Of a stretch of 64,000 bases of DNA, positions 18,119-60,183 are shown piece after piece. The notes under the pieces were generated by a model. It saw nothing but the letters and a program-made list of their open reading frames with translations, did not search any database and had not been told where the DNA came from. Every line of letters begins with the position of its first letter. Positions within the stretch are counted from its first letter, which is position 1. Source of the stretch: Candidatus Fervidifonticultor sextus (GTDB lineage: Bacteria; Sysuimicrobiota; Sysuimicrobiia; Sysuimicrobiales; Humicultoraceae); contig JAVKHQ010000005.1 of assembly GCA_031459875.1 (NCBI GenBank), positions 39,584 to 103,583 of the forward strand. Direction: 5' to 3'. Made by a program: the position numbers and the translations under genes.

Positions 18119-18168
18119 CCGGACCCCGCCAGTCCTGAGGGGGGCCCTGCCAGACGGGCGGGGTCCGG
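18119..18168 (-). terminator. 12-bp perfect GC stem (CCGGACCCCGCC / GGCGGGGTCCGG) with a 26-nt loop, 8 nt downstream of the PCu(A)C stop. Candidate terminator.
   Basis: Seen directly in the sequence; it has no U-tract. Confidence 0.35.
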
Positions 18169-18175
18169 TCGCCGC

Positions 18176-18691
18176 CTACGGCGCCGACATGCGCACGGGT
18201 ACCGAGATGGCCACCGCTCCCGCCCGCTCGAAGTGCAGCGTCACGGCGAGCCGCTCCCCCTCTTTGAGGTCGCGCTTGAGTCCCAGCAGCATGATGTGGA
18301 GCCCACCCGGACGCAGCTGCGCCCGTCCGCGAGCAGGGACCACGATGGCCGGCACCTTGTGCATGCGACTCATGCCGCCCTCCATGCGCGTCTCATGGAG
18401 TTCCACCGCGGCGGCGACCCCGGCGTCGGCGCGCAACAGCCGGTCAGCCTGCGAGCCGGTGTTGTGAATGACCATGTAGATCGCCGAGGCGCCAGGTCCC
18501 ATCTCCGTGCCTTTCCCATGGACACCGGCGGGTGCCGCGACGCCCGGCCGTGCCCAGGCCTTCTCGATCCTGATCGATGACGCAGGCGACGCGGCATCGC
18601 CCGAGATGGTGGCGGCTCCGATAAACACGGCAGCGGCAACGAGGGGCGCACCCGAGAGCCACAGGTGCCTCATCTGACGTGACAGGTACAT
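18176..18691 (-). CDS. Copper chaperone PCu(A)C (DUF461), intact copy.
   Basis: HETRMEGGMSRMHKV is the H(M)X10MX21HXM-type Cu(I) motif. Start chosen at the ATG 10 nt after an AAGGAG RBS. Confidence 0.8.
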   Translation of the reverse strand: MYLSRQMRHLWLSGAPLVAAAVFIGAATISGDAASPASSIRIEKAWARPGVAAPAGVHGKGTEMGPGASAIYMVIHNTGSQADRLLRADAGVAAAVELHETRMEGGMSRMHKVPAIVVPARGRAQLRPGGLHIMLLGLKRDLKEGERLAVTLHFERAGAVAISVPVRMSAP

Positions 18692-18745
18692 CTCTGGATC
18701 ACTCCTTTGCCAATCGGTCGCGACGCGAAGTCGGGCGTGTTGCAT

Positions 18746-19330
18746 CTAGTGCCTGAGCAGCTGACGGACGTCGTGTGCCACGTCGGCCGCGGTGGCCTCG
18801 TGGCTCACATTCAGACGCCAGCGTCCCTCCCGGTCGATGACGGGGACGTTCGTCGAGTGCGCTATGAGGTACCCCGCTGCGCTGTTGCGTACCGGGACCT
18901 TCTGGAACGCGGCGCCGAAGAATCGGTAGGTCGCGGCCAACAGATGCGGGGGGCCTGTCAGACCTACGAACTCGGGGCTGAACAGACGGAGGTACCGGTC
19001 GAGGAACGCCGGGGTGTCAACCTCGGGGTCGAGCGTGATGAACACGAAGCGGACTCGCGCGGCGTCCGTCCCCAGTATCTTGGCGACGTCCCGGAACATC
19101 CCCAGGGTGAGCGGACAGACGTCCGGGCACCTGGTGTAGCCAAAGAAGACCAGGACGACGCGCCCCCGTTGCTCGGCGAGGTTGAACGGCCGCCCGTGCT
19201 GGTCGCTCAGCACGAGCCTCGGGACCGGGCGCGCAGGGTCGAGTTCGCGGGCTCGGAAGCTTGGGCGGTGGCACGCGGAGAGGAGCAGCACGGCCAAGCC
19301 GCTGGCGATCCATCTGATCCATCGGGCCAT
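18746..19330 (-). CDS. SCO1/SenC-family copper chaperone (thioredoxin fold); likely lipoprotein.
   Basis: CPDVCP is the CxxxC motif. LLLSAC is a lipobox-like sequence. GGGAGG RBS 6 nt before the ATG at 19330. Confidence 0.8.
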   Translation of the reverse strand: MARWIRWIASGLAVLLLSACHRPSFRARELDPARPVPRLVLSDQHGRPFNLAEQRGRVVLVFFGYTRCPDVCPLTLGMFRDVAKILGTDAARVRFVFITLDPEVDTPAFLDRYLRLFSPEFVGLTGPPHLLAATYRFFGAAFQKVPVRNSAAGYLIAHSTNVPVIDREGRWRLNVSHEATAADVAHDVRQLLRH

Positions 19331-19425
19331 AACTAGCCTCCCGCGAAAGGTGTCTACCACGACGCCGCACCGCAACACGCCGGGAGTCGACGGCGTGGAG
19401 TGGCGGGCCGCAGTGGTGAGTCGGA

Positions 19426-19941
19426 TTAGGCTGGGCGGTGGGCTCGAGGCGGAGGGTCCGGAACGGGGAGGGGGATGGGCATGAGGCCCGGCGAGACCGG
19501 GCGGGCGACCCGTTCGGTCGGCGGTGGCGCTCCCGGCATCACTGTCGCTGGCGCCGTGGCGACGGCCAGGCCCGAGACGCTGAGGACCTGCGCGCCATGG
19601 GCGGTCCCGGGAAGGACGGACACGACACGCGGCAGTTCAGAAATTCGTCGGCTGCCGTGCGGGGGCCACGCCGCGCTCTTCCCGTTCTCACCATGATGTC
19701 CGGGGGATCCGCGCTGCCGGTCGTGGCCGTGGCGACGGTGGTGGGCGAGCGCGTCGGCGCGCTGCGCAGGCGTACCGCCGATCACCACGTGCAGGTGGTA
19801 CGGGTCGCGCTCCACCGCCTGCGTGTCGGCGACCGGGACGATCAGTCGCAAGACCATCGCCGGCAACGCAACCGCGGCCACAACCAGGAACGGACCCGGA
19901 CGGCTTGAGCGATCTGCCGGCGCCGCGCGACATGGGAACAT
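19426..19941 (-). CDS. Uncharacterized His-rich single-pass membrane protein, paralog 1 of 3.
   Basis: TM helix FLVVAAVALPAMVLRLIV, then DPYHLHVVIGGTPAQRADALAHHRRHGHD and a C-terminal PDPPPR. Conserved with the proteins at 46480-46998 and 48798-49277. Start uncertain. Confidence 0.5.
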   Translation of the reverse strand: MFPCRAAPADRSSRPGPFLVVAAVALPAMVLRLIVPVADTQAVERDPYHLHVVIGGTPAQRADALAHHRRHGHDRQRGSPGHHGENGKSAAWPPHGSRRISELPRVVSVLPGTAHGAQVLSVSGLAVATAPATVMPGAPPPTERVARPVSPGLMPIPLPVPDPPPRAHRPA

Positions 19942-20348
19942 GCCTGGCCGGTGTTCGACAGTGGTAGGATGAAGTCCTCCCCCCTTCCAACCCGATGCAG
20001 ACATGGACATCCGGACGACGGCCCGCGGCAAGCGCGATGGCACCATCGTGCGCCACCTGCAGCTCGCCCACAACGAGCGGGGTCCGCGGACCGGAATGCC
20101 CCGGGCCCGCGTCCTGTCCCGGCAATCCGGGCCAACCTGGGAAGCGCCCGGAACTCCAAGGTGGCGGGCTCACCGGCCCTCACGACGACAGCCCGGGATG
20201 TGGGAACCACCGCCAGGTCGGCGGAGAACGCCACGACGTCCCACGCGCCCGGCACCACCCGCAGGTGGGCCCTCCCCGTCGCGTGTCCCGTGGTCATTGC
20301 ACCGGCCCGCGCGTCATGGCAGTGTCCCAGCTTCGATCATGGTCCGTA

Positions 20349-41740: not shown

Positions 41741-42331
41741 CTATCGGCCCTCCAGGAGCGCTCGCGCGTCCGCCGCGAGGTCTGCGGCCAGAACGCCCCA
41801 TGGATACGAGAACCGGATCGTCCCGTGCCGGTCGATGAGGTAGATCGCCGTGGCATGGCCGATGCGGGCGTCCTCACCCGACCCGGCCGCCGCGTAGGGA
41901 GCGGGATAGACATTGAACGCCCGGTAGAGACGCGCCAGGACCTCTCGCGCGCCGGTGAGGCCGACGAAGTCCGGGTGGAAGATCGAAACGTACCAGCGCA
42001 ATCGCTCGGGCGTGTCGCGATCCGGATCAGTGGTGACGAAGAGCACGCGCACGTGCGCCGCGTCCACCCCGAGCAACGCCCGTGCCTGTCTGAGGGTGAC
42101 CAGCGTGGTCGGGCATACGTCGGGACAGAGCGTGTAGCCGAACGCGAGGAACACCACCATGCCTCGCAGCGCATCGAGCGAGAACGGGCGACGGTGACCA
42201 TCGAGCAGGGTGACCGCTGCCGGGAGCGGTTCGCGGACCGGCAGCCCGCGGAAGGCCGGTGGGGCCGCCCGCAGGCAGGCCCCACCCAGCAACGTCAGGC
42301 CCACGAGCGCGCAGGCCCACACCCCGCGCAT
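41741..42331 (-). CDS. SCO1/SenC-family copper chaperone (third, divergent copy).
   Basis: CPDVCP is the CxxxC motif; thioredoxin fold. Confidence 0.8.
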   Translation of the reverse strand: MRGVWACALVGLTLLGGACLRAAPPAFRGLPVREPLPAAVTLLDGHRRPFSLDALRGMVVFLAFGYTLCPDVCPTTLVTLRQARALLGVDAAHVRVLFVTTDPDRDTPERLRWYVSIFHPDFVGLTGAREVLARLYRAFNVYPAPYAAAGSGEDARIGHATAIYLIDRHGTIRFSYPWGVLAADLAADARALLEGR

Positions 42332-42332
42332 C

Positions 42333-42716
42333 TCAGGGGACCACCCGGAGCGTCGCCTGCATCCCGGCTTCCCGGTGCCCGGGGATGCTGCAGTACACCA
42401 CGTAGGCTCCCGGCGCCAACCGGGCTTTCACCTGCACGGTCTTGCCGGCAGGGAAGGGTTTGGCCTCCGCGACAATCTTCTTCGCCGCATTCTCGACGAC
42501 AAAGTCGTGCTCGACGGCTCCGGCGTTCCGCACAGTGAATGTGACCTCGCCGGCCTTCGCCAGCAGGTCCCTGGGTTCGTAGACGAACTCCCGGGCGACC
42601 ACGGTCACCGACAGGGAGGGCGAGGCGGGCGGCGGTGCCGGAGCCGCCGATGGCGTGTGTGCCGCGGTCATCCCCAGGATCGTCAGCGCCATGCCAACCC
42701 GGCGTACGATACGCAT
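42333..42716 (-). CDS. Small type-1 (blue) copper cupredoxin.
   Basis: Signal peptide; CSIPGHREAGM carries the C-x-P-G-H...M ligand motif. Confidence 0.7.
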   Translation of the reverse strand: MRIVRRVGMALTILGMTAAHTPSAAPAPPPASPSLSVTVVAREFVYEPRDLLAKAGEVTFTVRNAGAVEHDFVVENAAKKIVAEAKPFPAGKTVQVKARLAPGAYVVYCSIPGHREAGMQATLRVVP

Positions 42717-42745
42717 GCTGAACCCCTCCGATCTGGACCGCGCCG

Positions 42746-44266
42746 TCAGTGCGCCGGCCGCGGCTTGATGACGAGGACCCCGTTGCCACCCCAGGCGTCC
42801 GGCCCCAGGTGGACGTCCCCCGCCTTCCGCGGGGGAGAGACGGATAGGTCGACCACCGTGAGTACCGGCGCGTACTTGTTGGTCACGTAGGCCAAAAACC
42901 CGCCGCCCTGCTTGAAGCCGTAGGCCACGCCGTGGGCGCCCTTGTACGCCGGCACTTCGCTGACGACCCGAATCTTCGATGGATCGTCGTAGTCGACCGC
43001 GATCACGCTGGCGTTGGCGGTCCCGGTGTTGGCCACGACGACGTAGCGGCCGTCCGGGCTGAACGGCGACTGAATGGGCACGGCGCCGACCCGCACGATC
43101 TTGACCACCTTGGGGTTCTTCGGATCGCGCAGGTCCTGGAAGATCAGGCGGCCCTGGAGGAGCTTGTCGTGGGTCAACAACACGGTGGTGGTGACCGCGT
43201 AGCGCTTGTTGGGCGAGATCGCCGCGTACAGAGGCAGGTTGGCGCCGAATGCCTTCCCGTCGAGATCGGTCACCTTCGACAGGTCCACCGTGGTCAGCAC
43301 CTTCTCCGCGTCCAGGTCGATGATCGACATCTGCCCCGAGAGCGCGTTCGCGACGACCATGAGCTTGCCGTCGGGCGAGATCCAGCCGCCGTGCGGTCCG
43401 AGGGGCACCTCGATGTAGCGCACCGGGACCTGGGCCGCCGGTACGGCGGGATCCACCGCCTTGACGAGATCGAGCACGGCAATCCGGTTCGCCGCGTTGA
43501 TGGTCACCACGACCTTGCCCTGGGGCGTGGTGTGGGTGTGCGCGGGGGACTCGCCGACCGGGATGCGGTTCTTGACGATGCGCCGGGTCCGGGCGTCGAT
43601 GATGGTCAGGTAGTTCTGATGCCAGTTGGTCTGGACGACGTAGCGCTCGTCCCAGGAGACCATGGCGTTGTGCGGGTTGTTGAAGTCGCCGTCGATGACC
43701 GCCTTCACCTTCATCGTGGCGGCATCCACCACCGTGACGGTGCCCGGCGCCTCGCGGTTGGGTCGGGTCTGGAACTGCGTGTCCACCCACACCTCGCCTC
43801 GGCCTCGCACGCGCGGTGGCACCAGGCCGGTGGGGCTGGCCGGCGGCCACGGCTTGATGAACTGCGGCAGGGGGTTCGCGCCGACCGCGATCTGCCCGTC
43901 CATGTAGGGATGGATGGCGCAGACGTAGACGTAGACCCCCGGCTTGGTGAACTGCTGGCGCGCCGTGCCCTTGCGGCCCACGATGGTGATGGTCTTCGCC
44001 GGTTCGTCGAAGCCGGTGAGGAAGGTGATGGTGTGGAGCGTCCGGGCATCAGAGAACGACCAGACGACCTCGTCGCCCGGCTCCACGCGCAGCGTCTGTG
44101 GGAAGAACCACGGCGCGAACTCGCTGACGACGACGGCGTTCTTTGGCAGGGCGGGCGGTGGCGCGCCGCCCGGGGCCTCGGGCGCGGAGCGCGCGATCCC
44201 GGCCGGCCCGGCGATCACCGCGGCCGCGATGGCGAACACCAGCAGGCTCCTGCTCAGCGTCGGCAT
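42746..44266 (-). CDS. Secreted cupredoxin domain fused to a YVTN-family beta-propeller.
   Basis: N-terminal region YVYVCAIHPYMDGQ has the C-x2-H-x2-M cupredoxin site. This is followed by repeated YVVVAN / AVTTT propeller blades. Signal peptide after the ATG at 44266. Confidence 0.7.
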   Translation of the reverse strand: MPTLSRSLLVFAIAAAVIAGPAGIARSAPEAPGGAPPPALPKNAVVVSEFAPWFFPQTLRVEPGDEVVWSFSDARTLHTITFLTGFDEPAKTITIVGRKGTARQQFTKPGVYVYVCAIHPYMDGQIAVGANPLPQFIKPWPPASPTGLVPPRVRGRGEVWVDTQFQTRPNREAPGTVTVVDAATMKVKAVIDGDFNNPHNAMVSWDERYVVQTNWHQNYLTIIDARTRRIVKNRIPVGESPAHTHTTPQGKVVVTINAANRIAVLDLVKAVDPAVPAAQVPVRYIEVPLGPHGGWISPDGKLMVVANALSGQMSIIDLDAEKVLTTVDLSKVTDLDGKAFGANLPLYAAISPNKRYAVTTTVLLTHDKLLQGRLIFQDLRDPKNPKVVKIVRVGAVPIQSPFSPDGRYVVVANTGTANASVIAVDYDDPSKIRVVSEVPAYKGAHGVAYGFKQGGGFLAYVTNKYAPVLTVVDLSVSPPRKAGDVHLGPDAWGGNGVLVIKPRPAH

Positions 44267-44332
44267 GACGACACCCCCGTTCGTCAGGTGATCGTGCGGT
44301 CTGACAGCGTGCACTCGGACCTCTTGCATGGC

Positions 44333-45004
44333 TCATCTCGCCGCCTGGACGAACGTCCTCCATGTGCGCGCCGCGCCTGCGGCGGAGGCCGGCGCGTGGT
44401 CGGGACAGTCGATCCGCAGGGCGCGGTCGCCGAAGGCGGCGTCCACGAACGCACAGTGATGCGGGCGGGCGGGATCGGCGTGCACGTGCGGCCGAAAGTA
44501 CCGGCAGGTGACGCACATCCGGCTCGGGGCGATCTGCCCAGACTCCTGGAGGGCGCGGATCACCTTCACCAGGGCGCGCAGCAGGGCGGCCTGCTCGGTT
44601 ACCCCGAGCGTGTCGACCGCAGCGTGCACGGCTTCGCCCCAGCTCAACGCCCGACCCGCTTCGCGACGACCCGCGGGTGTGAGGACAATGAGCCGGCCAC
44701 GGCCGTCGCCACCGACGGCGTGCTTGGCGACAAGCCCTTTCCGCGCCAGGGTGGTGACCGCCTGGCTCGCGCTCGCCCTGGTGACGCCCAGCGCGGCCGC
44801 GACGGCGGAGAGGCGCTGGCCACCGGGATGGCGGCGCAACATGGTGAGGATCAGCCCCTGCGTCGGCGTGAGGCCGCGTGGCCCGGCGCCACGCCACGAC
44901 GCCTGCCGCAGCGCCAGAGCGATCCTGCTCAGGCCGGCGGTGACGCGTTGCCGCAGGGGCTCGCCGTCGACCTCAACCCGGGTGAACGCCGACCTGGAGA
45001 CCAT
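44333..45004 (-). CDS. MarR-family winged-helix regulator with a Cys/His-rich C-terminal tail; possible metal (copper) sensor.
   Basis: LTPTQGLILTMLRRH...LSAVAAALGVTRASASQAVTTLARKGLV is a MarR wHTH. The tail reads MCVTCRYFRPHVH...HHCAF...RIDCPDH. Confidence 0.65.
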   Translation of the reverse strand: MVSRSAFTRVEVDGEPLRQRVTAGLSRIALALRQASWRGAGPRGLTPTQGLILTMLRRHPGGQRLSAVAAALGVTRASASQAVTTLARKGLVAKHAVGGDGRGRLIVLTPAGRREAGRALSWGEAVHAAVDTLGVTEQAALLRALVKVIRALQESGQIAPSRMCVTCRYFRPHVHADPARPHHCAFVDAAFGDRALRIDCPDHAPASAAGAARTWRTFVQAAR

Positions 45005-45254
45005 GTTGGTTAAGTCTCCTAACGACTCGTTGCCTCCCGGGTTCGACACAGAGGTCGAGGTTCCTGCACGCCTCCGACGGACCGCGGAGGCACGCCAACC
45101 TTCGGGCCAGTGGACGCCCGCCAAGAGGGGGCCGCCACGGGCGCCGGCACCGGGGAGCATGATGTCGCTCTCCGGGACAGGGCCGTGGGTGATCCCGCGG
45201 GCGCGATTCCTCGGTTGGTCGGCGGGTGCGGGCCCGGCGCCGTCCGGCCGAAGG

Positions 45255-45764
45255 TCAGGGCGCCGCCATTCGCACCGGCACCCGGACCGCCACCGCCCCG
45301 GCCTGCTCGAAGTGCAGCGTCGCTGTGAACCGATCCCCCTCCCGAAGGTCGCGCTTGAGGCCAAGCAGCATGATGTGGAGGCCGCTTGGCCGCAGCGTCA
45401 CCCGGCCGCCCGCGGGCACCACAATAGCCGGCAGCTTGTGCATGCGACTCATGCCGCCCTCCATGCGCGTCTCGTGGAGCTCCACGGCGGCGGCAACGTC
45501 GGTCTCGGCACGCACCAGACGATCACCCCTCGGTCCGGTGTTGTGGATGGTCATGTAGATCGCCGACGTGCCGGGGCCCATGGCCATGGTGGTCCCGTGG
45601 GCACCGGCGGGAGCCGCGATGCCTGGCCGCGCCTAGGCGTCCTCGATGCGGATAGGCGAGGCCGGCGGCGCCGCTTCGCTGGCAGCGATGGCGGCCATGA
45701 ACACCACTGCGGTGAAGAGGGCCGTGCCTCGCAGCCACGAGATTCTCAAGCACATCAAGTCCAT
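45255..45764 (-). pseudogene. PCu(A)C copper chaperone paralog interrupted by an in-frame TAG at 45633-45635, where the intact copy has TGG.
   Basis: The single reading frame 45764-45255 encodes MDLMCLRISWLRGTALFTAVVFMAAIAASEAAPPASPIRIEDA*ARPGIAAPAGAHGTTMAMGPGTSAIYM...HETRMEGGMSRMHKL. It aligns residue-for-residue with the intact copy (...IRIEKAWARPG...). Confidence 0.6.
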
Positions 45765-45813
45765 ACTCATCACTCCTTTCCAGCCCGCACCAATGCCAAG
45801 TCGGGCGTCGAGC

Positions 45814-46389
45814 CTAGTGCCGCAACAGCTGCCGGATGTCGTGTACCAGGTCGTCCGCGGTGGCCTCGTGGCTCAGATTCAGACGCCAGCGGCCCTGCCG
45901 GTCGATGACGGCGATGTTCGCCGAGTGCGCCACGAGGTACCCCGCCGCGCTCTTGGGCACCGGGACCTTCTCGAACGCCGCGCCGAAGAATCGGTACGTG
46001 GTGGTCAGTGCGTCCGGGGGGCCCGCCAGGCCCACGAACTCCGGATGGAACAGCCGCAGGTACCGGTCGAGGAACGCCGGCGTGTCGATTTCCTGGTCCA
46101 CCGTGACGAATACGAAGCGAACCCGTGCGGCATCCGCCCCGAGCCTCTCGGCGACCTGGCGGAAGACCCCGAGTACGAGGGGGCAGACATCCGGGCACCG
46201 GGTGTACCCGAAGAAGATCAGGACGACCCGACCCCGCTGCCCGGCCAGGTTGAACGGGTGCCCATGTTGGTCGGTGAGCGTGAGCGCCGGCACCGGACGG
46301 GGAGGATCGAGCACGCGGCCCCGGAAGGTCGGGCGCTGGCAGGCTGAGACCAGCAGCACCAACAGGCCGACGGCGATCCATCTGGACAT
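45814..46389 (-). CDS. SCO1/SenC-family copper chaperone, second copy (about 80% identical to 18746-19330); lipoprotein-like.
   Basis: CPDVCP; lipobox-like VSAC. GGGAGG RBS 6 nt before the ATG at 46389. Confidence 0.8.
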   Translation of the reverse strand: MSRWIAVGLLVLLVSACQRPTFRGRVLDPPRPVPALTLTDQHGHPFNLAGQRGRVVLIFFGYTRCPDVCPLVLGVFRQVAERLGADAARVRFVFVTVDQEIDTPAFLDRYLRLFHPEFVGLAGPPDALTTTYRFFGAAFEKVPVPKSAAGYLVAHSANIAVIDRQGRWRLNLSHEATADDLVHDIRQLLRH

Positions 46390-46479
46390 GGGTGACCTCC
46401 CTCGAAAAGCGTTCAGCGCGGCACACGTCACGGCGTCCCCGCCGATGGGGCGGAGCGCGGGCCGCAGTGACCTCGGTGA

Positions 46480-46998
46480 CTAGGCGAGAGGGTCTGGTCG
46501 GGGCGGGGGATCCGGGACGGGAATGGCGACCCGGGCGACGCGCGGCGGGGCCAGACCTGCGATCTGTCCGGTGGCCCGGGGGGCGGGGGGCCCCGCAGGC
46601 GCCGCCACCGTTGCGACCGACAGGCCGGTCGTGCTCAGGACCATCGCGCCCGAGGCAGTCCCGGGAAGGACCGACACGACGCGCGGGACTTGGGGGTCGC
46701 CCTGGGCCATTCGTTGGGTCTGCCCCCCGCCCGTCCAGTGTCGTCCCGGATGTCCGGCGGAGCCGTGCGGTCTGTCGTGGTCGTGGTGACGGTGGTGGGC
46801 GAGTGCTTCAGCGCGCTGCGCGGGGGTGCCGCCGATGACGAGATGCAGGTGGTAGGGATCGCGCTCCACCGCCTGCGTGTTGGCGATGGGCAGGATCAGC
46901 CGCGCGATGGTCACCAGCAACAGGCCCGTGCCCGCAGCCTGGCGTGGCGACGAGCGATCCCAGCGGGCGACCAATGTCGCGCGAGGCACGAGCATCAT
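46480..46998 (-). CDS. Uncharacterized His-rich single-pass membrane protein, paralog 2 of 3.
   Basis: TM helix LLLVTIARLILPIA, then DPYHLHLVIGGTPAQRAEALAHHRHHDHDRPHG and a C-terminal PDPPPRP. Confidence 0.5.
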   Translation of the reverse strand: MMLVPRATLVARWDRSSPRQAAGTGLLLVTIARLILPIANTQAVERDPYHLHLVIGGTPAQRAEALAHHRHHDHDRPHGSAGHPGRHWTGGGQTQRMAQGDPQVPRVVSVLPGTASGAMVLSTTGLSVATVAAPAGPPAPRATGQIAGLAPPRVARVAIPVPDPPPRPDPLA

Positions 46999-47011
46999 GC
47001 TGTACCCGCTC

Positions 47012-47041
47012 ATTATAGTCGGTCGCCGCACCAGCGTGCAA
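47012..47041 (-). promoter_or_regulatory. Near-consensus sigma-A-type promoter: TTGCAC, 18-nt spacer, TATAAT (on the minus strand), driving the His-rich/SCO/PCuAC array. The first ATG of that gene lies about 8 nt past the predicted TSS.
   Basis: Seen directly in the sequence: reverse complement of GTGCAA at 47036-47041 and ATTATA at 47012-47017. Confidence 0.45.
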
Positions 47042-47127
47042 CGCACAGAGGGGAGGAGAGGGGCGGACGCACCCGGGGAAGTCACGTCCCGTCGCCGGGA
47101 GAGATCGCGGCAGGTCGCGTGAACTCG

Positions 47128-48042
47128 TTAGCGCGTCTTCAGGTAGCGGAGAAGCCCCAGCGCGCTCAGCCGCGTGGACATGATCGTCTCGAACCGGGCC
47201 ACGCGGTCTGGCCCGTCGAGCCGGGCGGCTTCGACCGCCATCACGTGGCGCATCCGGCGCGCGATCGCGTCTTCATCAGCGCCGTCCTCCAGGGCCACGC
47301 GGACCAGTTCCACCGCCGCGTGCAGGCGCTGCTGCAACTGCGCCAGCAGCTCCTCGACCCAGGTGTGCGCGCCGAAGTGCGTCAGCAGGAGCCGCCGCGC
47401 TCCAAGCCCCTGCAGGCGCCCGATGGTGGCATCCCACGCCGGGACGTCGAGTTCGGGGGGTGGGGTCGGGGGGCGGACGTAGCGGGATCCCGGCAGCGCC
47501 ACGCCGGCCGCGTCCCCGGTGAAGAGGTCCCCGGAGGCGCGATCGAAGTAGACGACGTGATGACGGGCGTGGCCGGGGGTATCGAAGACGGCCAGCCGAC
47601 GCGACCCCAGCAACACCTCCGCCCCCTCGCCGATGACGCGGATCCGCTCGTGGGGCACCGGGGCCACCTCGCCGAAGAGCCGCTCCAGGTCCGCGCCGTA
47701 CAGCCGCCGGGCGCTGGCCATCAGCCGCGAGGGATCCGCCAGGTGGGGCGCGCCCACCGGGTGCACGTAGACCTCCAGATGCGGGAACCGACGCACGAGG
47801 ACGCCGGTGGCGCCCGCATGGTCCAGGTGAATGTGGGTCACGGCCAGGGCCTGGAGGTCTTCGGGCTCCACCCCCGCGGCCCGCACGCTCTCCAGGAGGG
47901 TCTCCACGGTAGACGCCGGCCCGGTCTCGATCAGGGCCGGCCGGTCGCCCGTCAGCAGGTAGGCGCCGATGGCCTGCGGGGTCCCTTCGTAGTCGGTGTC
48001 AATCAGAACGAGATCGTCGGCCAGGCGTTCGATGCGCGGCAT
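47128..48042 (-). CDS. MBL-fold metallo-hydrolase.
   Basis: THIHLDHAG carries the HxHxDH motif. Confidence 0.8.
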   Translation of the reverse strand: MPRIERLADDLVLIDTDYEGTPQAIGAYLLTGDRPALIETGPASTVETLLESVRAAGVEPEDLQALAVTHIHLDHAGATGVLVRRFPHLEVYVHPVGAPHLADPSRLMASARRLYGADLERLFGEVAPVPHERIRVIGEGAEVLLGSRRLAVFDTPGHARHHVVYFDRASGDLFTGDAAGVALPGSRYVRPPTPPPELDVPAWDATIGRLQGLGARRLLLTHFGAHTWVEELLAQLQQRLHAAVELVRVALEDGADEDAIARRMRHVMAVEAARLDGPDRVARFETIMSTRLSALGLLRYLKTR

Positions 48043-48090
48043 GGGTCGTCCCCCGGTGAGCGTCCGGCATCACAATAACACAGCCGGATG

Positions 48091-48099
48091 TGGTATGCT
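48091..48099 (+). promoter_or_regulatory. Extended -10 element, TGgTATGCT, in the divergent region, driving the DUF3105 / CopC / CopD plus-strand array.
   Basis: Seen directly in the sequence. Confidence 0.4.
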
Positions 48100-48143
48100 C
48101 ACCTGCGAGATTGCCACGCGAGCCTCAGGTGAGGGGTTGCGGC

Positions 48144-48794
48144 ATGTCACCAGGCGGCAAGGCTACCCGGGAGGCGAAGCGACAGCGCCGTGAGGCGGCG
48201 CTCGCGGCCCGGCGCGAAGAGCAGCGTCGGCTCCAGGCCCGGCGGCGACGGCGGGCGCTGGCCGTCTACGGGGGCATCGCCTTGATCGTGGTGGCCGGCG
48301 TGGGGTTGCTGACGCTCTCGGCGCTCCGCCCTCAGTCCAGCATCTTGGGTGCCATCGGCGGCTTCGGGAAGCCGTCTGGCCTGGAGGGGGTCCAGGTGTT
48401 TGCGGACCAGGGCGCGGCCCACATCACCCTGGGCCAGGCGCACCCTCCGTACAACTCCAATCCGCCCACCTCGGGATGGCACACTCCCTTCACCGCCCCC
48501 TGGGGAGTGCACCGCACGTCGATCGCGGACGAGATCATCGTCCACAACCTGGAGCACGGCGGCATCTGGATTTCATACAGGGACGCATCCGACACGGCGC
48601 TGGTGGAGAGGCTGGAAGCCCTGGTGTCCCGCTACCGCTCCAAGGTGATCCTGACGCCGCGGTCCAATAACGACAGCCGGATCGCCGTGGCCGCCTGGAC
48701 GCGCCTGCTGAAACTCGACGAGTACGACGAGCGGAAGATCGTGGCCTTCATCAACGCCTTCAAGAACAAGGGACCGGAGATGGTCCCTGACTGA
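48144..48794 (+). CDS. DUF3105 domain protein with an N-terminal Arg-rich segment and a TM helix.
   Basis: TM helix LAVYGGIALIVVAGVGLLTL, then GWHTPF...HNLEHGGIWISY. Confidence 0.65.
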   Translation: MSPGGKATREAKRQRREAALAARREEQRRLQARRRRRALAVYGGIALIVVAGVGLLTLSALRPQSSILGAIGGFGKPSGLEGVQVFADQGAAHITLGQAHPPYNSNPPTSGWHTPFTAPWGVHRTSIADEIIVHNLEHGGIWISYRDASDTALVERLEALVSRYRSKVILTPRSNNDSRIAVAAWTRLLKLDEYDERKIVAFINAFKNKGPEMVPD

Positions 48795-48797
48795 GCG

Positions 48798-49277
48798 GTG
48801 GAGGACCGGCGGCTGATGGAGGCTGCACGTTGCGCCAGGGCGGCGGCCGTGGTCACGCGCCCGGTCCGAACGTCTCTGCTCCCCGTGTTCCTGGTCATCG
48901 TCCTTCTTGGTGCTTTCGATCCGGGTGCGGGGGAGCGGGGTCCTTCGCACGCACACATCGTAATCGGTGGCACCCCGGACGAGCAGGCGCGAGCCCTCGC
49001 TGCCCATTTGCGGGGCGCGCACTCGTCGGCCACCTCCCACGCCTGGCATGTGCTCTTCCGGGCCTCCGACGAGGCGACAGACCACCCCCACGTGATCTCC
49101 ATCAGCACGGGTGCGGTCGGTGCCTCCGTCCTCGGAGTCGGCGACGGGACCATGGTGGCCGCGCCCGCCAGCCGGGTGCCCCGCGCACCGCTGTCCGGCC
49201 GGGTTGTGCCCCTGCAGTCCGCGGCGCCGGCCGAAGCCGATCGGACCGTCCCTGATCCGCCTCCTCGCCTCACCTGA
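48798..49277 (+). CDS. Uncharacterized His-rich single-pass membrane protein, paralog 3 of 3 (divergent).
   Basis: TM helix LLPVFLVIVLLGAF, then PSHAHIVIGGTPDEQARALAAHLRGAH and a C-terminal PDPPPRLT. Confidence 0.45.
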   Translation: MEDRRLMEAARCARAAAVVTRPVRTSLLPVFLVIVLLGAFDPGAGERGPSHAHIVIGGTPDEQARALAAHLRGAHSSATSHAWHVLFRASDEATDHPHVISISTGAVGASVLGVGDGTMVAAPASRVPRAPLSGRVVPLQSAAPAEADRTVPDPPPRLT

Positions 49278-49378
49278 ACCGTCCGGCTACACACATGGCA
49301 CGCTGGCGGACGGGCATCGCCCCCGGAGGTCGTGGTCCCGCCTGCGGGTCGATGCCCAGATCATGGGAGGTGGGCACT

Positions 49379-49813
49379 GTGAGAAGGCAGCTCCTTGTGC
49401 TGGCCCTGTGCGTCCCCCTGACCCTGGGCGTCATCGCGCCAGCCGTTCTCGGTCACCAGACGAAGGTGGTGGGCGGCAAGTACCGGGTAATCGTGGGGTT
49501 TGTCCGGGAGCCCGCCTTCACCGATGAGCGCAACGGCCTGGACCTGATCGTGCGCCGGGTTGAAGACAATGCCCCCGTGGAGCACCTCGAACGCAGCCTC
49601 TCGGCCGAACTGATCGCCCCAGGAGGCCAGGGCAGGCGGGCGCTGCGGCTTCGGCCGCAGTTCGGCCGGCCCGGCTACTACACCGACGACTTCATCCTGA
49701 CCCGTCCGGGTGTCTACCAGATCCGCGTGTGGGGCGTCATCGCTGACGTGCGCTTCGACGAGACGTTTGAGTCCCATGAGGTCAGGCCGCTCAGTGAGTT
49801 GCGGTTTCCGTAG
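49379..49813 (+). CDS. Putative periplasmic copper-binding protein (CopC-like / YcnI-like beta-sandwich). Assignment tentative.
   Basis: Signal peptide, then GHQTKVVGGKYRV. C-terminal GVYQIRVWGVI resembles the CopC G-Y-V-W-V pattern. GTG start with a GGGAGG RBS. Confidence 0.4.
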   Translation: MRRQLLVLALCVPLTLGVIAPAVLGHQTKVVGGKYRVIVGFVREPAFTDERNGLDLIVRRVEDNAPVEHLERSLSAELIAPGGQGRRALRLRPQFGRPGYYTDDFILTRPGVYQIRVWGVIADVRFDETFESHEVRPLSELRFP

Positions 49814-49814
49814 C

Positions 49815-50273
49815 ATGCGGGGATCGTTTCCCGAGACTGTCCTGGTCGGCGCCGCCCTGGCCCTCCTGGGGGCCGGGGCGGCTGCCGCCCACGCCTACCT
49901 CAGGGCCGCGGAGCCGGCCGAGGACAGCACGGTGGCGGTCGCCCCCAGCGAGGTTCGGCTTGTGTTCAGCGAACCCATCGAGGTCCGGTTCAGTACCTTC
50001 AAGGTCTATCGGGTGCCCGCTGATCCGGGGTGGGATCGGCGTCGCCTCAACGCGGCTGCAGGCGCCCTGGTCTCGGAGGTCCTTCGGCGTCGCGGTGACG
50101 AAGCCGACCGGGCGGATGCCGGCCTGGCGACGGCCGCACGTACGACCACCACCGTGACGCTACGCCTGCGTCCCCATCTGGCTCCCGGCGCCTACGCGGT
50201 GATGTGGCGGGTGCTGTCGATCGACACGCATGTCACCCAGGGCTTCTACGTGTTTCGGATCAGACCGAACTGA
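49815..50273 (+). CDS. copC: Copper resistance protein CopC.
   Basis: Mature N-terminal His (AAAAHAYL), EVRLVFSEPIEVRFSTFKVY, and GAYAVMWRVLSIDTHVTQGFYVF. Confidence 0.85.
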   Translation: MRGSFPETVLVGAALALLGAGAAAAHAYLRAAEPAEDSTVAVAPSEVRLVFSEPIEVRFSTFKVYRVPADPGWDRRRLNAAAGALVSEVLRRRGDEADRADAGLATAARTTTTVTLRLRPHLAPGAYAVMWRVLSIDTHVTQGFYVFRIRPN

Positions 50274-50294
50274 AGGGACGCGTCACCCGATCTC

Positions 50295-51998
50295 ATGGAC
50301 GTCCTCGCCAGGACCCTTTCCTACCTCGGCGCGACCCTGTTGATTGGTGCAGGGATCTTCGCCTTCTGGATCGGCCCCGAGATGGCCCGCAGCGCGGCGC
50401 GTGGGCGGATCCGCCTCGGCGCGCTGGCGGGAGTCTGCCTGCTGCTGGTGGGGACCGCACTGGGGGTGATCCGGGGACTCCTCCAGGCGCTGGGCGAACT
50501 GGGTCCGGCCATGGTACCGGCCTACCTTCTCGGGACCCGTCACGGCAACGCGGCCGCCGCCCGGATCGTGCTCGCCGTCCTGCTCGGGGTCATGGCGCCG
50601 GGCCGCGGCGGCCGACTCAGCAGGCCCGTCTTTCTGGGGCTCGCCGCCGGCCTGCTCGCGACTTTCAGCCTGACCAGCCACGCCGCCGGCCTCGGTCGGG
50701 TCTTCCCGATCCTGGCGGACCTGGTCCACCTTTCCGGCGCCGCCGTGTGGGCCGGCGTCGTGCTCTACCTGGCATGGGCTCCAGTCTGGGTGCCCAGCCT
50801 GCCGCAGGGCGCCCCCGGAGATTCTCTGAGCCAGGCCGTGCGGCAGACCTCCGCGATCGGACTGGCCTGCGTCCTCCTGCTCGTTGCGACCGGCGCCTAC
50901 GCGGCCGCCCTGCACCTCTGGGGCCCCGTGGCGCTCTCGGCCACCCCGTACGGCCGGACCCTCGCGGGCAAACTCGCGGCCATCGCCCTGCTGCTGGCAA
51001 TCGCTGCGGTGAACCGTTGGGTGCTCACTCCTGGTCTTGGGCGGCCCGGATTCCTCGGGGCGACTGGCCGCCTGCTGAAGGTCGAGTCGCTGGTTCTGGC
51101 CGCCGTCTTGTCCCTGACTGCCCTGCTCACCACGCGCCCGCTGCCCGAGCCGCCGGCCTCCGTGGAGGGCGTCGTGACCATCAATGAGGTGGCTGGCCCC
51201 TGGCTGGTGCGGGGGAGCCTGGCTCCGGCGATTCCCGACGGGCTCACCCTTGAGTTGACGGTCCGCCGCGCTGGCGGCGCCCTCCCGGTGGGCCCGATGT
51301 CCGTGGAAGCCGTGATGACCATGCAGGGGCATCCGATGCCGCCGGTGGTCATCCGGCCGACGGCCACCGGTCCGGGAAGTTTCCGCGCCGCTGTCTCGCT
51401 GCCGATGGCTGGCGCGTGGGACCTCGCTATCGTCCTGCCGGGCGCCGTCCTCCGTGTTCCCGTCATGGCTCGCAGCGGTCCGGGGGGCGGCTCAGGGTGG
51501 GCTCCAGTGCTGCCAGGTCTCCTGCTGGCGGTCGCCGCCTCGGTCGTTGCGGGTGCCATGCTCGACCGGGCAGGCCTCCACACGCAGACAGGCCGGCTGG
51601 CCGCCCTCACAGGAGGCGCCCTGCTGGCGGTCGGCCTGACCTTCGCCGTCCGCGCCGCAGCCCCCGCCACCTCGCCGGGCGGGATCCCTGACCGGCAGAA
51701 TCCCATCGCCCCGACGGCGGAGTCGCTGGCCGCCGGAGAACGCCTCTACCGGCAGCATTGCCAGGCCTGCCACGGGCTCACCGGAGCCGGCGACGGTCCG
51801 GCCGCCGCAGCGCTCCGCCCGCCGCCGGCGGACCTGCGGGTGCACATGGCGGCGGGGCACACCGACGGCCAGCTCTTCCACTGGATCAGCGAGGGCATGC
51901 CCGGGACCGCCATGCCAGCCTTCAAGAATATCCTCTCCGAGGAGGACCGCTGGCATGTGTTGAACTTCATCAAATCGTTCGCCCTCAGCGATCGGTAA
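50295..51998 (+). CDS. CopD-family membrane protein fused to a C-terminal mono-haem cytochrome c domain.
   Basis: Multi-TM CopD region. C-terminal region LYRQHCQACHG has the CxxCH haem-binding motif; ...GMPGTAMPAF is Met-ligand-like. Confidence 0.75.
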   Translation: MDVLARTLSYLGATLLIGAGIFAFWIGPEMARSAARGRIRLGALAGVCLLLVGTALGVIRGLLQALGELGPAMVPAYLLGTRHGNAAAARIVLAVLLGVMAPGRGGRLSRPVFLGLAAGLLATFSLTSHAAGLGRVFPILADLVHLSGAAVWAGVVLYLAWAPVWVPSLPQGAPGDSLSQAVRQTSAIGLACVLLLVATGAYAAALHLWGPVALSATPYGRTLAGKLAAIALLLAIAAVNRWVLTPGLGRPGFLGATGRLLKVESLVLAAVLSLTALLTTRPLPEPPASVEGVVTINEVAGPWLVRGSLAPAIPDGLTLELTVRRAGGALPVGPMSVEAVMTMQGHPMPPVVIRPTATGPGSFRAAVSLPMAGAWDLAIVLPGAVLRVPVMARSGPGGGSGWAPVLPGLLLAVAASVVAGAMLDRAGLHTQTGRLAALTGGALLAVGLTFAVRAAAPATSPGGIPDRQNPIAPTAESLAAGERLYRQHCQACHGLTGAGDGPAAAALRPPPADLRVHMAAGHTDGQLFHWISEGMPGTAMPAFKNILSEEDRWHVLNFIKSFALSDR

Positions 51999-52003
51999 CC
52001 TGA

Positions 52004-53038
52004 ATGCGTGCTTCCCGCCGTCGCCATCTCCATCGGGCCGCCCTGCTGGCAAGTCTGCTGGCTGCCTTTTCGGGTTGCCAGCAGGCGCCGCCGGCCCACG
52101 GGCCGGCGCTCCCGCTGGTCAGGCCTGTACCGGACGCTCCGGGCAGGCTGCTCTACACGAAACTGCGGCCCGATGCCCGGAGCGCGTTTATGACCTTCGA
52201 GCCGGCCACCGGGGCGCTCGCGGAGCTGGTCGTGTTCCCGCCGGGTGTGATCGCGGGGATGCCCGCCGCCTCACCCGATGGGGCCCAGGTGGCCTACAGC
52301 GCCTACCGACCCGGAAAGGATCCGACGGATCCCGGCGGCACCGATCTCTACGTGATGGATGCCACTGGCGCGCGCCAGCACCTCGTGGCCGCGCATCCGC
52401 AGGCGGGTGCCTCGCTGACCGAGCCGGCGTGGGCGCCAGACGGTCGAACCCTGTATGTCACCCACGTCGCCCGCGACGGCGCCATGCGGATCGAACGGAT
52501 CTCGCTGAGCGATCGGCGCCGACAGACCGTCATCGTCAACGCCTCGTACCCGACCGTCGCCCCTGACGGACGTGTGGGGTTCATCCGCATGGATCCGAGC
52601 CTCCGCATCCAAGAACTCTGGGTGGCACAGGCCGACGGGCGCGGGGCCCGTCGTATCGTGGCCGGCTCGCCGTTTGCCGGGATGGCCTTCCCCAGGTTTG
52701 CACCCTCAGCCGATCTCATCGTGTTTGCGGCCATCGGTGGTCCCGTCGGCTCGCCTTCGCCCCGATCCGAGCGTCCGGTGCCTCTCTGGCAGCGTGGACG
52801 GGCTGCCTTCGCCCACGCCGTCCCCTGGGACCTCTGGATCGTCGCTAGCGACGGGACGGGCCTGAGGCAGGTGACCAACCTGAAGGAGGACTACCCCGTT
52901 CCGGTCTGGTCCGCCGACGGGCACTGGATCGCCTTCACGGGCGAGTTCGGCCTCTACCTCCTCCGCCCCGCGGAGAAGCGGGTTGTGCGGGTCCACGATG
53001 AAGGGGCTGGGAGCGGCCTGGCGTGGCTGTCGCGCTAG
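52004..53038 (+). CDS. TolB-like beta-propeller (PD40 repeats) lipoprotein.
   Basis: Lipobox LAAFSGC. Repeats ASPDGAQVAY / WAPDGRTLYV / VAPDGRVGF. Confidence 0.65.
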   Translation: MRASRRRHLHRAALLASLLAAFSGCQQAPPAHGPALPLVRPVPDAPGRLLYTKLRPDARSAFMTFEPATGALAELVVFPPGVIAGMPAASPDGAQVAYSAYRPGKDPTDPGGTDLYVMDATGARQHLVAAHPQAGASLTEPAWAPDGRTLYVTHVARDGAMRIERISLSDRRRQTVIVNASYPTVAPDGRVGFIRMDPSLRIQELWVAQADGRGARRIVAGSPFAGMAFPRFAPSADLIVFAAIGGPVGSPSPRSERPVPLWQRGRAAFAHAVPWDLWIVASDGTGLRQVTNLKEDYPVPVWSADGHWIAFTGEFGLYLLRPAEKRVVRVHDEGAGSGLAWLSR

Positions 53039-53074
53039 GCGCCACCAGGCGTCCGCCCCCGGGCCGCGCCGGCC

Positions 53075-53102
53075 TTGCGCCGCCTGGGTTGCATGCTATA
53101 AT
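53075..53102 (+). promoter_or_regulatory. Promoter: TTGCGC, 16-nt spacer, TATAAT, upstream of rplY.
   Basis: Seen directly in the sequence. Confidence 0.5.
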
Positions 53103-53155
53103 GAACGCCGTTCGGGCCCCGATCCTCGGGGCTCGACTGTTGGAGGGAACCGCAC

Positions 53156-53893
53156 ATGGAACGGGTGACACTGAAGGCTCGGCCGCGTGAGGCACTCGGT
53201 AAAGGCGCCGCGCGCAGTCTTCGGCGGCAGGGGCTCGTCCCGGCGGTCGTCTACGGCCGCGGCCGGGACCCTCAGGCGGTCGCCGTCGATGCGAAGGCGC
53301 TGTCGGAGGCCCTGCACACCCACGCCGGTATGAACGTCCTGATCGATCTGGAGGTCCCAGACGGCGACGGCGCGGAGCCGACCACGGTCGTCGTCAAGGA
53401 GACCCAGCGGGACATCTTTCGGCATCACCTGATCCATGTGGACTTCCACGCCATCTCCCTGACCGAGACCATCGAGATGCATGTGCCGGTGGTGCTGAAG
53501 GGGACCGCCAGGGGGGTGGCCGAGGGCGGGGTGCTGGAGCACCACCTGCGCGAGGTCCTGGTCAAGTGTCTGCCGACGCAGATCCCGGACCAGCTCGAAC
53601 TGGATGTCACCGAGTTGCTGGTCGGCCGGTCCCTGCACGCCAGCGATCTGGTGGTCCCGGAAGGCGTCACGCTGCTTACGCCGCCCGATGAGGTGATCGT
53701 CACCGTCGTCGCGCCGCGGGTGCACGAGGAGGCGGCGCCCGCTGCGGCGGCCCCGGCGGAGGCCGCGGCGGCGGTCGAAAGCGCGCCGGCGCCCGAAGGG
53801 GCCGGGACCACGACGGCAGCCGGGAAGCCCCGGGCCGCCGACGCGGCGGCCGCGGCCGGCAAGCCGCGGGCAGCCGAAAGCGACAGGTCCTGA
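53156..53893 (+). CDS. rplY: 50S ribosomal protein L25 / general stress protein Ctc, with an Ala/Pro/Glu-rich C-terminal tail.
   Basis: MERVTLKARPREALGKGAARSLRRQGLVPAVVYG. Confidence 0.88.
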   Translation: MERVTLKARPREALGKGAARSLRRQGLVPAVVYGRGRDPQAVAVDAKALSEALHTHAGMNVLIDLEVPDGDGAEPTTVVVKETQRDIFRHHLIHVDFHAISLTETIEMHVPVVLKGTARGVAEGGVLEHHLREVLVKCLPTQIPDQLELDVTELLVGRSLHASDLVVPEGVTLLTPPDEVIVTVVAPRVHEEAAPAAAAPAEAAAAVESAPAPEGAGTTTAAGKPRAADAAAAAGKPRAAESDRS

Positions 53894-53968
53894 TCGCGCG
53901 CCGGGGCCACCGCCCCCCTGCGCCGCGCACCGGGTGCTCGCCCGAACGCGGATGGATGTCTTTTCGCC

Positions 53969-54568: not shown

Positions 54569-54570
54569 TG
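54565..54570 (+). promoter_or_regulatory. -10 TATAAT overlapping the pth stop, 20 nt upstream of the msrP-like ATG (GGAGG RBS between).
   Basis: Seen directly in the sequence. Confidence 0.3.
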
Positions 54571-54589
54571 GCGGGATGGAGGCATCGTC

Positions 54590-55168
<579 letters not shown>

Positions 55169-55201
55169 TCCTGGAGGCCCCCGCGTCAGGGCGCCGCGGC
55201 G

Positions 55202-56428: not shown

Positions 56429-56474
56429 CCGACGCGGCCGCAGGACTCAGCCCGCGGATCGCCCGGCGGCCCCC

Positions 56475-58201: not shown

Positions 58202-58203
58202 GG

Positions 58204-60130: not shown

Positions 60131-60183
60131 ACGCCCTGTGGGAACAGTCTAGGGGAGGGACTGTAACGGGTCTATGACGACGC

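Follow-up and report, generated by a model that had tools for sequence, protein, structure and literature searches.

A copper gene neighbourhood of Candidatus Fervidifonticultor sextus that reads as three separately conserved modules, one of them around a cupredoxin-propeller protein

Gene content of the cluster

The window analysed here is a stretch of 64,000 nucleotides (64 kb) from Candidatus Fervidifonticultor sextus, and the subject of this text is a cluster of copper-related genes of about 11 kb within it (window positions 41741-53038). Judged by gene content and by synteny with related genomes, this 11-kb stretch appears to be three separately conserved copper modules and not one island: module A, centred on an exported protein in which a cupredoxin domain is fused to a seven-bladed YVTN propeller, module B, a triad of a His-rich membrane protein, an SCO protein and a PCuAC protein, and module C, an operon containing CopC and CopD. 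We read the three together as a neighbourhood for copper uptake and copper insertion with one client enzyme encoded locally, and assign this reading a probability of roughly 70%.

Genes were called by third-position GC content (GC3), as raw lists of open reading frames (ORFs) are noisy at such GC content (window G+C ~70%). Domains were assigned with Pfam and NCBIfam hidden Markov models (HMMs), while window positions 1-12 kb were checked by motif and not with Pfam. The features are as follows.

Module A
41741..42331, minus strand: SCO1/SenC lipoprotein (SCO #3), PF02630 2.4e-33, downstream of the propeller and cupredoxin genes
42333..42716, minus strand: small secreted type-1 cupredoxin, 127 amino acids (aa), Cupredoxin_1 2.2e-8, Copper-bind 4.2e-8
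42746..44329, minus strand: cupredoxin::seven-bladed YVTN propeller, 527-aa ORF, likely start 44266 (506 aa)
44333..45004, minus strand: MarR-family regulator, 223 aa, MarR_2 4.8e-13, 49.5 bits against a cut-off of 27
45010..45022: operator-like near-palindrome TTAGGAGACTTAA, 5 nt upstream of the MarR ATG, AT-rich amid 70% GC

Module B and its duplicate
45255..45770, minus strand: PCuAC copy with an in-frame TAG, PF04314 3.9e-35 on the 3' part, 120 bits against a cut-off of 29.4
45814..46431, minus strand: SCO1/SenC lipoprotein (SCO #2), PF02630 1.6e-35
46480..47085, minus strand: His-rich single-pass membrane protein, likely start 46998, with ERDPYHLHLVIGGTP...HHRHHDHD and C-terminal VPDPPPR
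18176..20073, minus strand: intact paralogous triad His-rich-SCO-PCuAC, outside the 11-kb cluster

Module C and the divergent hydrolase gene
47128..48042, minus strand: cytoplasmic metallo-beta-lactamase (MBL)-fold hydrolase with HxHxDH, PF00753 (Lactamase_B) 1.6e-23
48043..48143: divergent intergenic region between the MBL and DUF3105 genes, 101 nt, without a MarR-type palindrome
48144..48794, plus strand: membrane-anchored DUF3105 protein, PF11303 1.8e-28, one transmembrane segment
48798..49277, plus strand: His-rich membrane protein #3, paralogue of 46480-47085 and 19426-20073
49295..49813, plus strand: secreted YtkA/CtaK-like protein, 144-172 aa, start 49379 (144 aa) in a 99%-identical relative
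49815..50273, plus strand: CopC, PF04234 2.5e-18, 67 bits against a cut-off of 23.3
50295..51998, plus strand: CopD::cytochrome c, CopD (PF05425) 4.1e-14, Cytochrom_C 5.1e-13, YtkA 9e-4
52004..53038, plus strand: PD40-repeat (TolB-like fold) lipoprotein with lipobox, PD40 1.1e-13

The gene order and strands given in a first-pass annotation of this DNA were reproduced by the GC3 gene calling, and HMM matches upheld its SCO, CopC, CopD, cupredoxin and nearly all other domain assignments, the exception being a gene it called CopC-like (49295-49813), which has no CopC HMM match and belongs to a YtkA-like family. It had counted three SCO proteins and three type-1 copper or cupredoxin domains, where the cluster has two type-1 sites and two SCO proteins, with a further SCO gene outside it at 18746-19378. 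The PCuAC pseudogene it described does carry an in-frame TAG (45633-45635), the c-type haem it placed on CopD is borne out by the Cytochrom_C match and a CQACH motif, and the absence of P1B ATPases and multicopper oxidases that it reported holds for the whole 64 kb, in which a motif scan found no P-type ATPase, multicopper oxidase or CuA motif. Its proposal of copper trafficking or cuproenzyme maturation, and not efflux, thus agrees with the presence of CopC/CopD together with YtkA-like, SCO and PCuAC proteins and with the lack of ATPase or multicopper oxidase motifs. Intergenic distances of 30 nt or less, which it gave for most genes, apply to the plus strand (gaps of 1-21 nt) and not to the minus strand, where the gaps are 43-130 nt, plus 250 nt ahead of the MarR gene.

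Synteny and genomic setting

The closest public relatives of the window are metagenome-assembled genomes (MAGs) from hot springs that bear the NCBI label Armatimonadota and correspond to Candidatus Sysuimicrobiota (CSP1-3), genus Fervidifonticultor (PMC11604079). The Candidatus Fervidifonticultor octavus locus (L007) is collinear at 94% DNA identity over window 47129-49415 and 49839-61822, and shares nothing with the window leftward of the MBL stop codon. In a Logan contig with 99% identity (L009) the order is the same, with the MBL gene followed by DUF3105-His-X-CopC-CopD::cyt c-PD40-L25, and the MBL gene adjoins the DUF3105 gene divergently in both L007 and L009.

Module A has a separate distribution. 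Locus L001 (GCA_031459855) has only the propeller and SCO genes in common with the window (86% and 75% DNA identity), between GlnS/OsmC and GltX/Prs, while MarR-propeller-SCO occurs in L002-L004, L016 and L018, and MarR-propeller plus a partial SCO match in L015. Two arrangements bring modules together: in L014, MarR-propeller-cupredoxin-SCO is followed by a convergent CopC-CopD::cyt c-PD40 paralogue set, and on one Joint Genome Institute (JGI) contig the His-rich-SCO-PCuAC triad lies ~5 kb from CopC-CopD::cyt c-PD40. The linkage between modules is loose but recurrent.

These comparisons bear on the earlier description of the stretch as a single co-regulated, possibly accessory island of 11 kb, with both arrays transcribed from 48043-48143 and the MarR protein acting island-wide. 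All of its genes are indeed contiguous and copper-related, the plus-strand gaps of 1-21 nt are short, and the divergent MBL/DUF3105 arrangement is kept in L007 and L009. However, synteny with the closest genome stops exactly at the MBL 3' end, the 250-nt gap and a conserved palindrome precede the MarR gene, a site of this kind being absent from 48043-48143, module A is found by itself in other loci, the segment in the middle is a copy of another part of the window, and the GC content is like that of the flanks, with neither tRNA genes nor terminal repeats. We therefore consider one island about one divergent promoter very improbable. The accessory nature, for which flanking synteny and GC skew had been proposed as a check, fared no better, given native GC, housekeeping neighbours and modules that vary independently among relatives, and a mobile or accessory genomic island was rejected.

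In the composition scan the cluster has a GC content of 0.68-0.72, matching its flanks. The genes on the left encode PfkB, a methyltransferase, a pyrophosphatase, glutamine synthetase, RF1/PrmC and Rho, and those on the right L25/Ctc, Pth, a molybdopterin oxidoreductase and FabF; the cluster is flanked by core chromosome with housekeeping genes. Scans of the window found no tRNA genes and no Rfam matches, and the repeat scan returned GC-rich chance repeats only, with no flanking or terminal repeats or element boundaries. The promoter scan gave no sigma-70 consensus match in the cluster, 48043-48143 included. A perfect 8-bp inverted repeat (48098-48105 / 48126-48133, CTCACCTG...CAGGTGAG, 20-nt spacer) is present in the leader of the DUF3105 gene.

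The cupredoxin-propeller protein of module A

The signal of the propeller protein is of the Sec type and lacks a twin-arginine motif. Among structures, amicyanin and pseudoazurin match the N-terminal domain of the protein, and the C-terminal rest is a YNCE/YVTN propeller, modelled by AlphaFold2 (AF2) with seven blades (pLDDT 86). The type-1 copper ligands are H99, C137, H140 and M143, with amicyanin-type spacing (C137-x2-H140-x2-M143). H220, H264, H313 and H466 each occupy residue 2-3 of a blade's innermost strand in the AF2 model, and from these strand positions the four histidines would ring one mouth of the central tunnel. In an alignment of 81 propeller-family sequences (28-91% identity) the type-1 ligands are conserved in 72-79 members and the four hub histidines in 79-80, along with Q185, Q420, W181, W236 and K473. 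One further histidine, H237, is found in the subfamily that comprises the window protein and homologues from ammonia-oxidizing archaea (AOA), and most distant members have H315 and C465 instead.

At least 282 propeller relatives were confirmed in a metagenome scan, and dozens of full-length representatives (50% clustering level) were among the best 150 of a profile search. The closest non-bacterial homologues, of 705-835 aa, come from Nitrososphaerales, Nitrosocaldus and Nitrosomirales and share 38-44% identity over ~87% of the query; no marine Nitrosopumilus names were seen among the archaeal homologue matches. The gene neighbours of the archaeal homologue are housekeeping genes, a context that is uninformative. 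The archaeal homologues (L005/L006 8001-10151, proteins P0016-P0051) carry an extra N-terminal domain of ~150 aa.

An SCO gene comes after the propeller gene in L001-L004, L014, L016, L018 and L019, and in 14 distant loci with 28-35% identity (L025, L029, L033, L036, L040, L047, L048, L056, L066, L069, L072, L080, L084 and L093) a multicopper-oxidase-like gene (Cu-oxidase_3, ~345 aa) is directly upstream of the propeller gene on the same strand. Because of the SCO pairing, the multicopper-oxidase-like pairing and the fused blue-copper domain, the best reading of the protein, as far as its sequence and gene context go, is an exported copper redox enzyme. The copper clusters of NosZ and thiocyanate dehydrogenase sit in the same propeller region as the hub His ring, and in the modelled structure the hub metal would most likely be copper.

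A hub without copper would be either a 4-His non-haem iron centre, as in the carotenoid- and stilbene-cleaving oxygenases, or a YncE/BtuG-like ligand pocket, the cupredoxin domain then being a relay or a relic. We regard this as unlikely, since the propeller gene is paired with an SCO copper chaperone gene in close relatives and preceded by the multicopper-oxidase-like gene in the 14 distant loci, and since the type-1 ligand set is intact across the family, implying redox catalysis.

Among characterised enzymes, NosZ (clades I and II) and L-NosZ (clade III) resemble the propeller protein in their seven blades with innermost-strand histidines, in a cupredoxin domain for electron entry and in their periplasmic location, and L-NosZ is its best NCBIfam match (6.4e-18). 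The propeller protein differs in its reversed domain order, its mononuclear type-1 site and its 4-5 hub histidines instead of 7, and no nosDFYL/R genes are present. Identity with either enzyme was rejected: the L-NosZ score is 64.5 bits against a cut-off of 700 and the NosZ scores are 32 and 24 against 625, and the single Cys (C137) with no CuA pair, the domain order and the hub count also speak against it. Thiocyanate dehydrogenase, with a trinuclear copper centre on a seven-bladed propeller, has no fused cupredoxin, another ligand set and only generic-propeller similarity, and it failed the sequence-family and ligand-set test. In methylamine dehydrogenase with amicyanin, and in cytochrome cd1, a catalytic propeller works together with a small redox domain. 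The Cys-x2-His-x2-Met spacing of the present cupredoxin domain is that of amicyanin; unlike in those systems, there is here one fused chain and no tryptophan tryptophylquinone (TTQ) light subunit, haem c or d1 haem machinery. Cytochrome cd1 nitrite reductase was rejected on the lack of CxxCH, the seven blades and a Cytochrom_D1 match that spans 85 residues only.

We found no characterised member of the propeller family in PDB, NCBIfam or the searchable literature, nothing relevant in the literature on YVTN plus cupredoxin, on an AOA propeller with plastocyanin or hydroxylamine or on a Nitrososphaera propeller with blue copper, and no record in an exact-sequence look-up of the propeller protein (long start). 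Another distant subgroup of propeller genes is flanked by DUF6502, DUF5666 and an unannotated protein of ~296 aa.

Probable partner proteins, regulator and candidate operator of module A

Two small genes downstream would serve the propeller enzyme. The cupredoxin (ligands His, Cys-x4-His-x4-Met) has an 82%-identical orthologue in the corresponding position of L014, and a divergently placed cupredoxin gene is present in L002 and L004; it is probably the redox partner of the enzyme, and the module-A SCO protein is probably its metallochaperone. Both SCO proteins of the cluster have the CPDVCP motif and lipoboxes (VSAC and GGAC), with scores of 122 and 115 bits against a cut-off of 22.8.

The MarR protein has a C-terminal tail of 60 aa with C164-x2-C167, H182-H183-C184, C200 and H203 (CVTCRYF...HHCAF...DC.DH). 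This tail is ~80% conserved in comparison with the L002 orthologue, against 50% for the whole protein, and the structure search found no solved MarR structure that extends past residue ~154 of the window protein. An exact-sequence look-up of the regulator gave no record.

The pattern TTAGGNNNYYTAA has a single match in 64 kb, at 45010-45022. The palindrome can be written as TTAGG-N3-YYTAA, with (A/G)TTAGG-N3-C(C/T)TAA(T/C) as a fuller form, and no matches were obtained for the motif with N5 spacing. In 8 related loci (L001-L004, L014-L016 and L018) it precedes the MarR gene or the propeller gene, for instance at L001 9856-9868, L002 1612-1624, L014 4654-4666, L015 5263-5275, L016 3084-3096 and L018 301-313, while the other 83 loci together have just 2 single-strand matches. 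In L001, without an adjacent MarR gene, a perfect ATTAGGAGACCTAAT lies 133 nt upstream of the propeller gene. This distribution suggests that MarR auto-represses module A through the palindrome and responds via its Cys/His tail. Cu(I) is the leading candidate ligand because import of the CopC/CopD type in E. coli (YebZ/YobA) provides the copper signal to MarR (PMC11923076), and oxidation of the tail thiols may be an alternative trigger.

Module B and its duplicate

The segment 45236-46921 duplicates 18157-19867 (blastn 73.9% identity over 1720 nt) and covers the PCuAC gene, the SCO gene and most of the His-rich gene; between SCO #2 and its paralogue (18746-19378) the phmmer e-value is 3.8e-104. 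The TAG in the island PCuAC copy replaces a Trp codon (IEDA*ARP against IEKAWARP in the paralogue) and splits the signal peptide from an otherwise intact PCuAC domain, in which the copper-ligand motif HETRM...M...HIM is present. The ratio of nonsynonymous to synonymous substitution rates (dN/dS) between the copies is 0.25 for PCuAC 3' of the stop, 0.29 for SCO and 0.58 for the His-rich gene. With a value of 0.25 the island PCuAC would have been under purifying selection until recently, and the TAG is either young or an assembly error. An exact-sequence look-up of the 110-aa PCuAC fragment gave no record.

The His-rich protein has three paralogues in the window (46480-47085, 48798-49277 and 19426-20073), which share the motif ER.P.H.H.VIGGTP and have no Pfam or NCBIfam match. 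The family is lineage-restricted, with only 15 clusters in 5.8 billion proteins, and its gene is always found either ahead of SCO-PCuAC or after DUF3105. Relatives conserve the triad His-rich-SCO-PCuAC, which recurs beside Fur-ZnuABC in other contigs.

The SCO/PCuAC pair known from Thermus and Bradyrhizobium (ScoI/PcuC) is the counterpart of module B, an SCO protein with CxxxC and His being encoded beside an H(M)x10Mx21HxM PCuAC protein, exported or lipid-anchored. In contrast to that pair, module B is preceded by the lineage-restricted His-rich protein and is duplicated, with a nonsense codon in one of the copies, and it has no gene for a CuA protein in its vicinity.

Module C, a probable copper-uptake operon

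The YtkA-like family (~145 aa) has an invariant His as first mature residue, after an AxA cleavage site. PF13115 (YtkA) does not match the window protein and weakly matches 12 of 21 homologues (best 1.2e-5), one homologue is named 'YtkA-like' in UniRef, one family member is fused to PCuAC, and the best matches of the predicted fold are CrdA, P19 and CopC. In the window, L009 and L011 the gene immediately precedes CopC-CopD, and it is slightly further away in a second L007 set and in Carboxydochorda (L010), where one YcnK-like (HTH_DeoR+NosL) regulator gene lies in between. Locus L007, 94% identical otherwise, is without most of the YtkA-like gene (window 49416-49838 against L007 ~9545-9548), and its second, diverged YtkA-like-CopC-CopD set is located ~6 kb away (L007 1774-3437).

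CopC also has an N-terminal His after cleavage (AAA|HAYL), together with a D-x-H motif (SIDTH). The CopD protein consists of ~8 transmembrane helices, a weak YtkA-like domain, 2 further transmembrane helices and a mono-haem cytochrome c (CQACH at residue 489), an order that would place both soluble domains outside the membrane; the transmembrane scan found nine hydrophobic segments. CopD scores 53 bits against a cut-off of 32.1, while the NCBIfam CopD equivalog (101 against 195) and the YtkA domain (20.2 against 25.9) stay below theirs. The CopD::cytochrome c fusion is also present in relatives, and the PD40 gene follows it in L007, L009, L014 and a JGI contig. The identification of the PD40 lipoprotein as TolB was rejected, as the TIGR02800 equivalog reaches 51 bits against a cut-off of 343 and only PD40 repeats are present. 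A literature search on DUF3105 gave nothing useful, and no signal peptide or transmembrane segment was predicted for the MBL hydrolase.

Two systems established as copper importers by experiment, ycnKJI of B. subtilis and AZY (YobA-YebZ-YebY) of E. coli (PMC12362106, PMC13344008, PMC11923076), share with module C an N-terminal-His CopC, an 8-TM CopD, an extracytoplasmic domain of the YtkA type (a weak match in module C), one more small secreted protein that binds copper and is encoded alongside, and the lack of an efflux pump. In module C, unlike in these, CopC and CopD are separate genes, the partner is YtkA-like and not YcnI/DUF1775 or YebY, a cytochrome c on CopD, DUF3105, the His-rich protein and the PD40 lipoprotein are added, and no YcnK or CsoR gene is adjacent. 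By this analogy, module C resembles a split YcnJ/AZY-type copper importer, with the haem domain of CopD as a candidate Cu(II) reductase. The fusion of CopD to cytochrome c is not new because it has already been reported, in the cbb3-type form, for ~4% of proteobacterial CopD, e.g., in Methylosinus trichosporium OB3b (PMC11923076). Those fusions continue into an Sco1/thioredoxin-like domain, whereas the SCO genes of the window are separate, and the window CopD has a YtkA-like domain and two transmembrane helices before the haem domain.

The same genes could be taken for a periplasmic copper-tolerance system that sequesters or detoxifies the metal, in which CopC/CopD would act as resistance proteins, the cupredoxin as a CopI-like protein and the His-rich proteins as sponges for copper. 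In favour are the original naming of CopC and CopD as resistance proteins, the three His-rich membrane proteins and a weak match of the small cupredoxin to CopI models (NF051440, 2.7e-8). However, the CopI match reaches 34 bits where the cut-off is 280, CopCD with a YtkA or YcnI partner forms experimentally supported importers (the same three reports), CopA ATPase and multicopper oxidase motifs are absent, and neither a Cus-type pump nor CsoR or CueR was found among the Pfam-scanned genes (with motif checks only in window 1-12 kb). Tolerance as the function of the cluster is thus improbable in our view.

Proposed mechanism and its weighing

In the mechanism that we propose, CopC and the YtkA-like protein would capture Cu(II), each via its N-terminal histidine, and pass it to the CopD membrane channel, where the fused haem c would reduce Cu(II) to Cu(I). 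The DUF3105 protein, the His-rich membrane protein and the PD40 lipoprotein would be accessory parts of module C. The module B trio would form a periplasmic copper-insertion set, of which the island copy has diverged and may have acquired its PCuAC stop recently. The putative module A operon would comprise the MarR repressor, the Sec-exported oxidoreductase, the small cupredoxin and a dedicated SCO protein. Within the oxidoreductase, the amicyanin-like type-1 copper domain would feed or drain the His-ringed hub metal site, the electron direction being presumed. MarR would bind TTAGGAGACTTAA at its own start codon and leave the DNA when its Cys4/His tail binds metal (probably Cu(I) supplied via CopD) or is oxidised.

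SCO proteins are classically CuA chaperones. In a competing explanation, the cluster does housekeeping work in assembling respiratory CuA/CuB enzymes (haem-copper oxidase or NosZ) whose genes lie elsewhere in the genome, with the propeller protein having an accessory or electron-transfer role only. The SCO, PCuAC and YtkA/CtaK proteins are established CuA assembly factors: B. subtilis YcnJ (CopC-CopD-YtkA) imports copper for haem-copper oxidases, supporting both Qox and Cta, and CtaK/YtkA works with Sco (PMC13344008). Moreover, nosZ and nirK occur in Sysuimicrobiota (PMC11604079), and the window is core chromosome. On the other hand, nine loci in several contexts have an SCO gene attached to the propeller gene (a tenth is partial), which argues for a dedicated client relationship, and no haem-copper oxidase or NosZ gene was found within 64 kb. 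This explanation overlaps the three-module reading for modules B and C; as an account of the whole neighbourhood we hold it possible but doubtful.

Several points weigh against uptake and insertion with a local client. As no CuA protein is encoded in the window, the clients of the SCO, PCuAC and YtkA-like proteins may be respiratory oxidases from elsewhere in the genome, and a 4-His ring on a seven-bladed propeller also fits non-haem iron. The ligand of the MarR tail could be zinc or an Fe-S cluster and not copper, and the PCuAC TAG could be an assembly error, no independent assembly having been found. Operon boundaries are drawn from spacing and synteny alone and are best taken as provisional. 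Of the ~8 related loci with sufficient flanking sequence, just 2 have modules A and C side by side, and the functional link between the two modules is therefore weak.

Significance

Modules B and C are recognisable variants of known uptake and chaperone systems and represent mostly ordinary copper housekeeping. Even so, the cluster is a compact natural case of an apparent YcnJ-like importer that is split into separate genes and carries its own haem domain. For B. subtilis YcnJ no associated reductase is known (PMC13344008), and the haem domain on CopD bears on this question of the missing YcnJ reductase.

Module A packages an enzyme with its likely redox partner, metallochaperone, regulator and candidate operator. 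It is a speculative idea, with the odds well against it, that the propeller protein founds a new class of periplasmic copper oxidoreductases (type-1 entry plus His-ringed hub) distinct from NosZ, L-NosZ and thiocyanate dehydrogenase, and that its archaeal homologues may be missing AOA copper enzymes. To our knowledge, the AOA copper enzymes downstream of ammonia monooxygenase are still unidentified. If the idea were true, the homologues of terrestrial and thermophilic AOA (Nitrososphaera, Nitrosocaldus, Nitrosomirales; 40-44% identity) could act on hydroxylamine, NO or N2O, or other small nitrogen or sulfur compounds, and the activity of the bacterial module A enzyme could inform archaeal nitrification biochemistry. 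The dedicated SCO protein, the Cys4/His-tailed MarR and the defined operator would then make the propeller class directly testable.

Outside the cluster, window 58207-59619 (minus strand) has 76% GC and a strong AT skew and is gene-free under the GC3 filter; an ORF for an FAD-dependent (geranylgeranyl-reductase-like) protein lies inside it, and the region appears ordinary.

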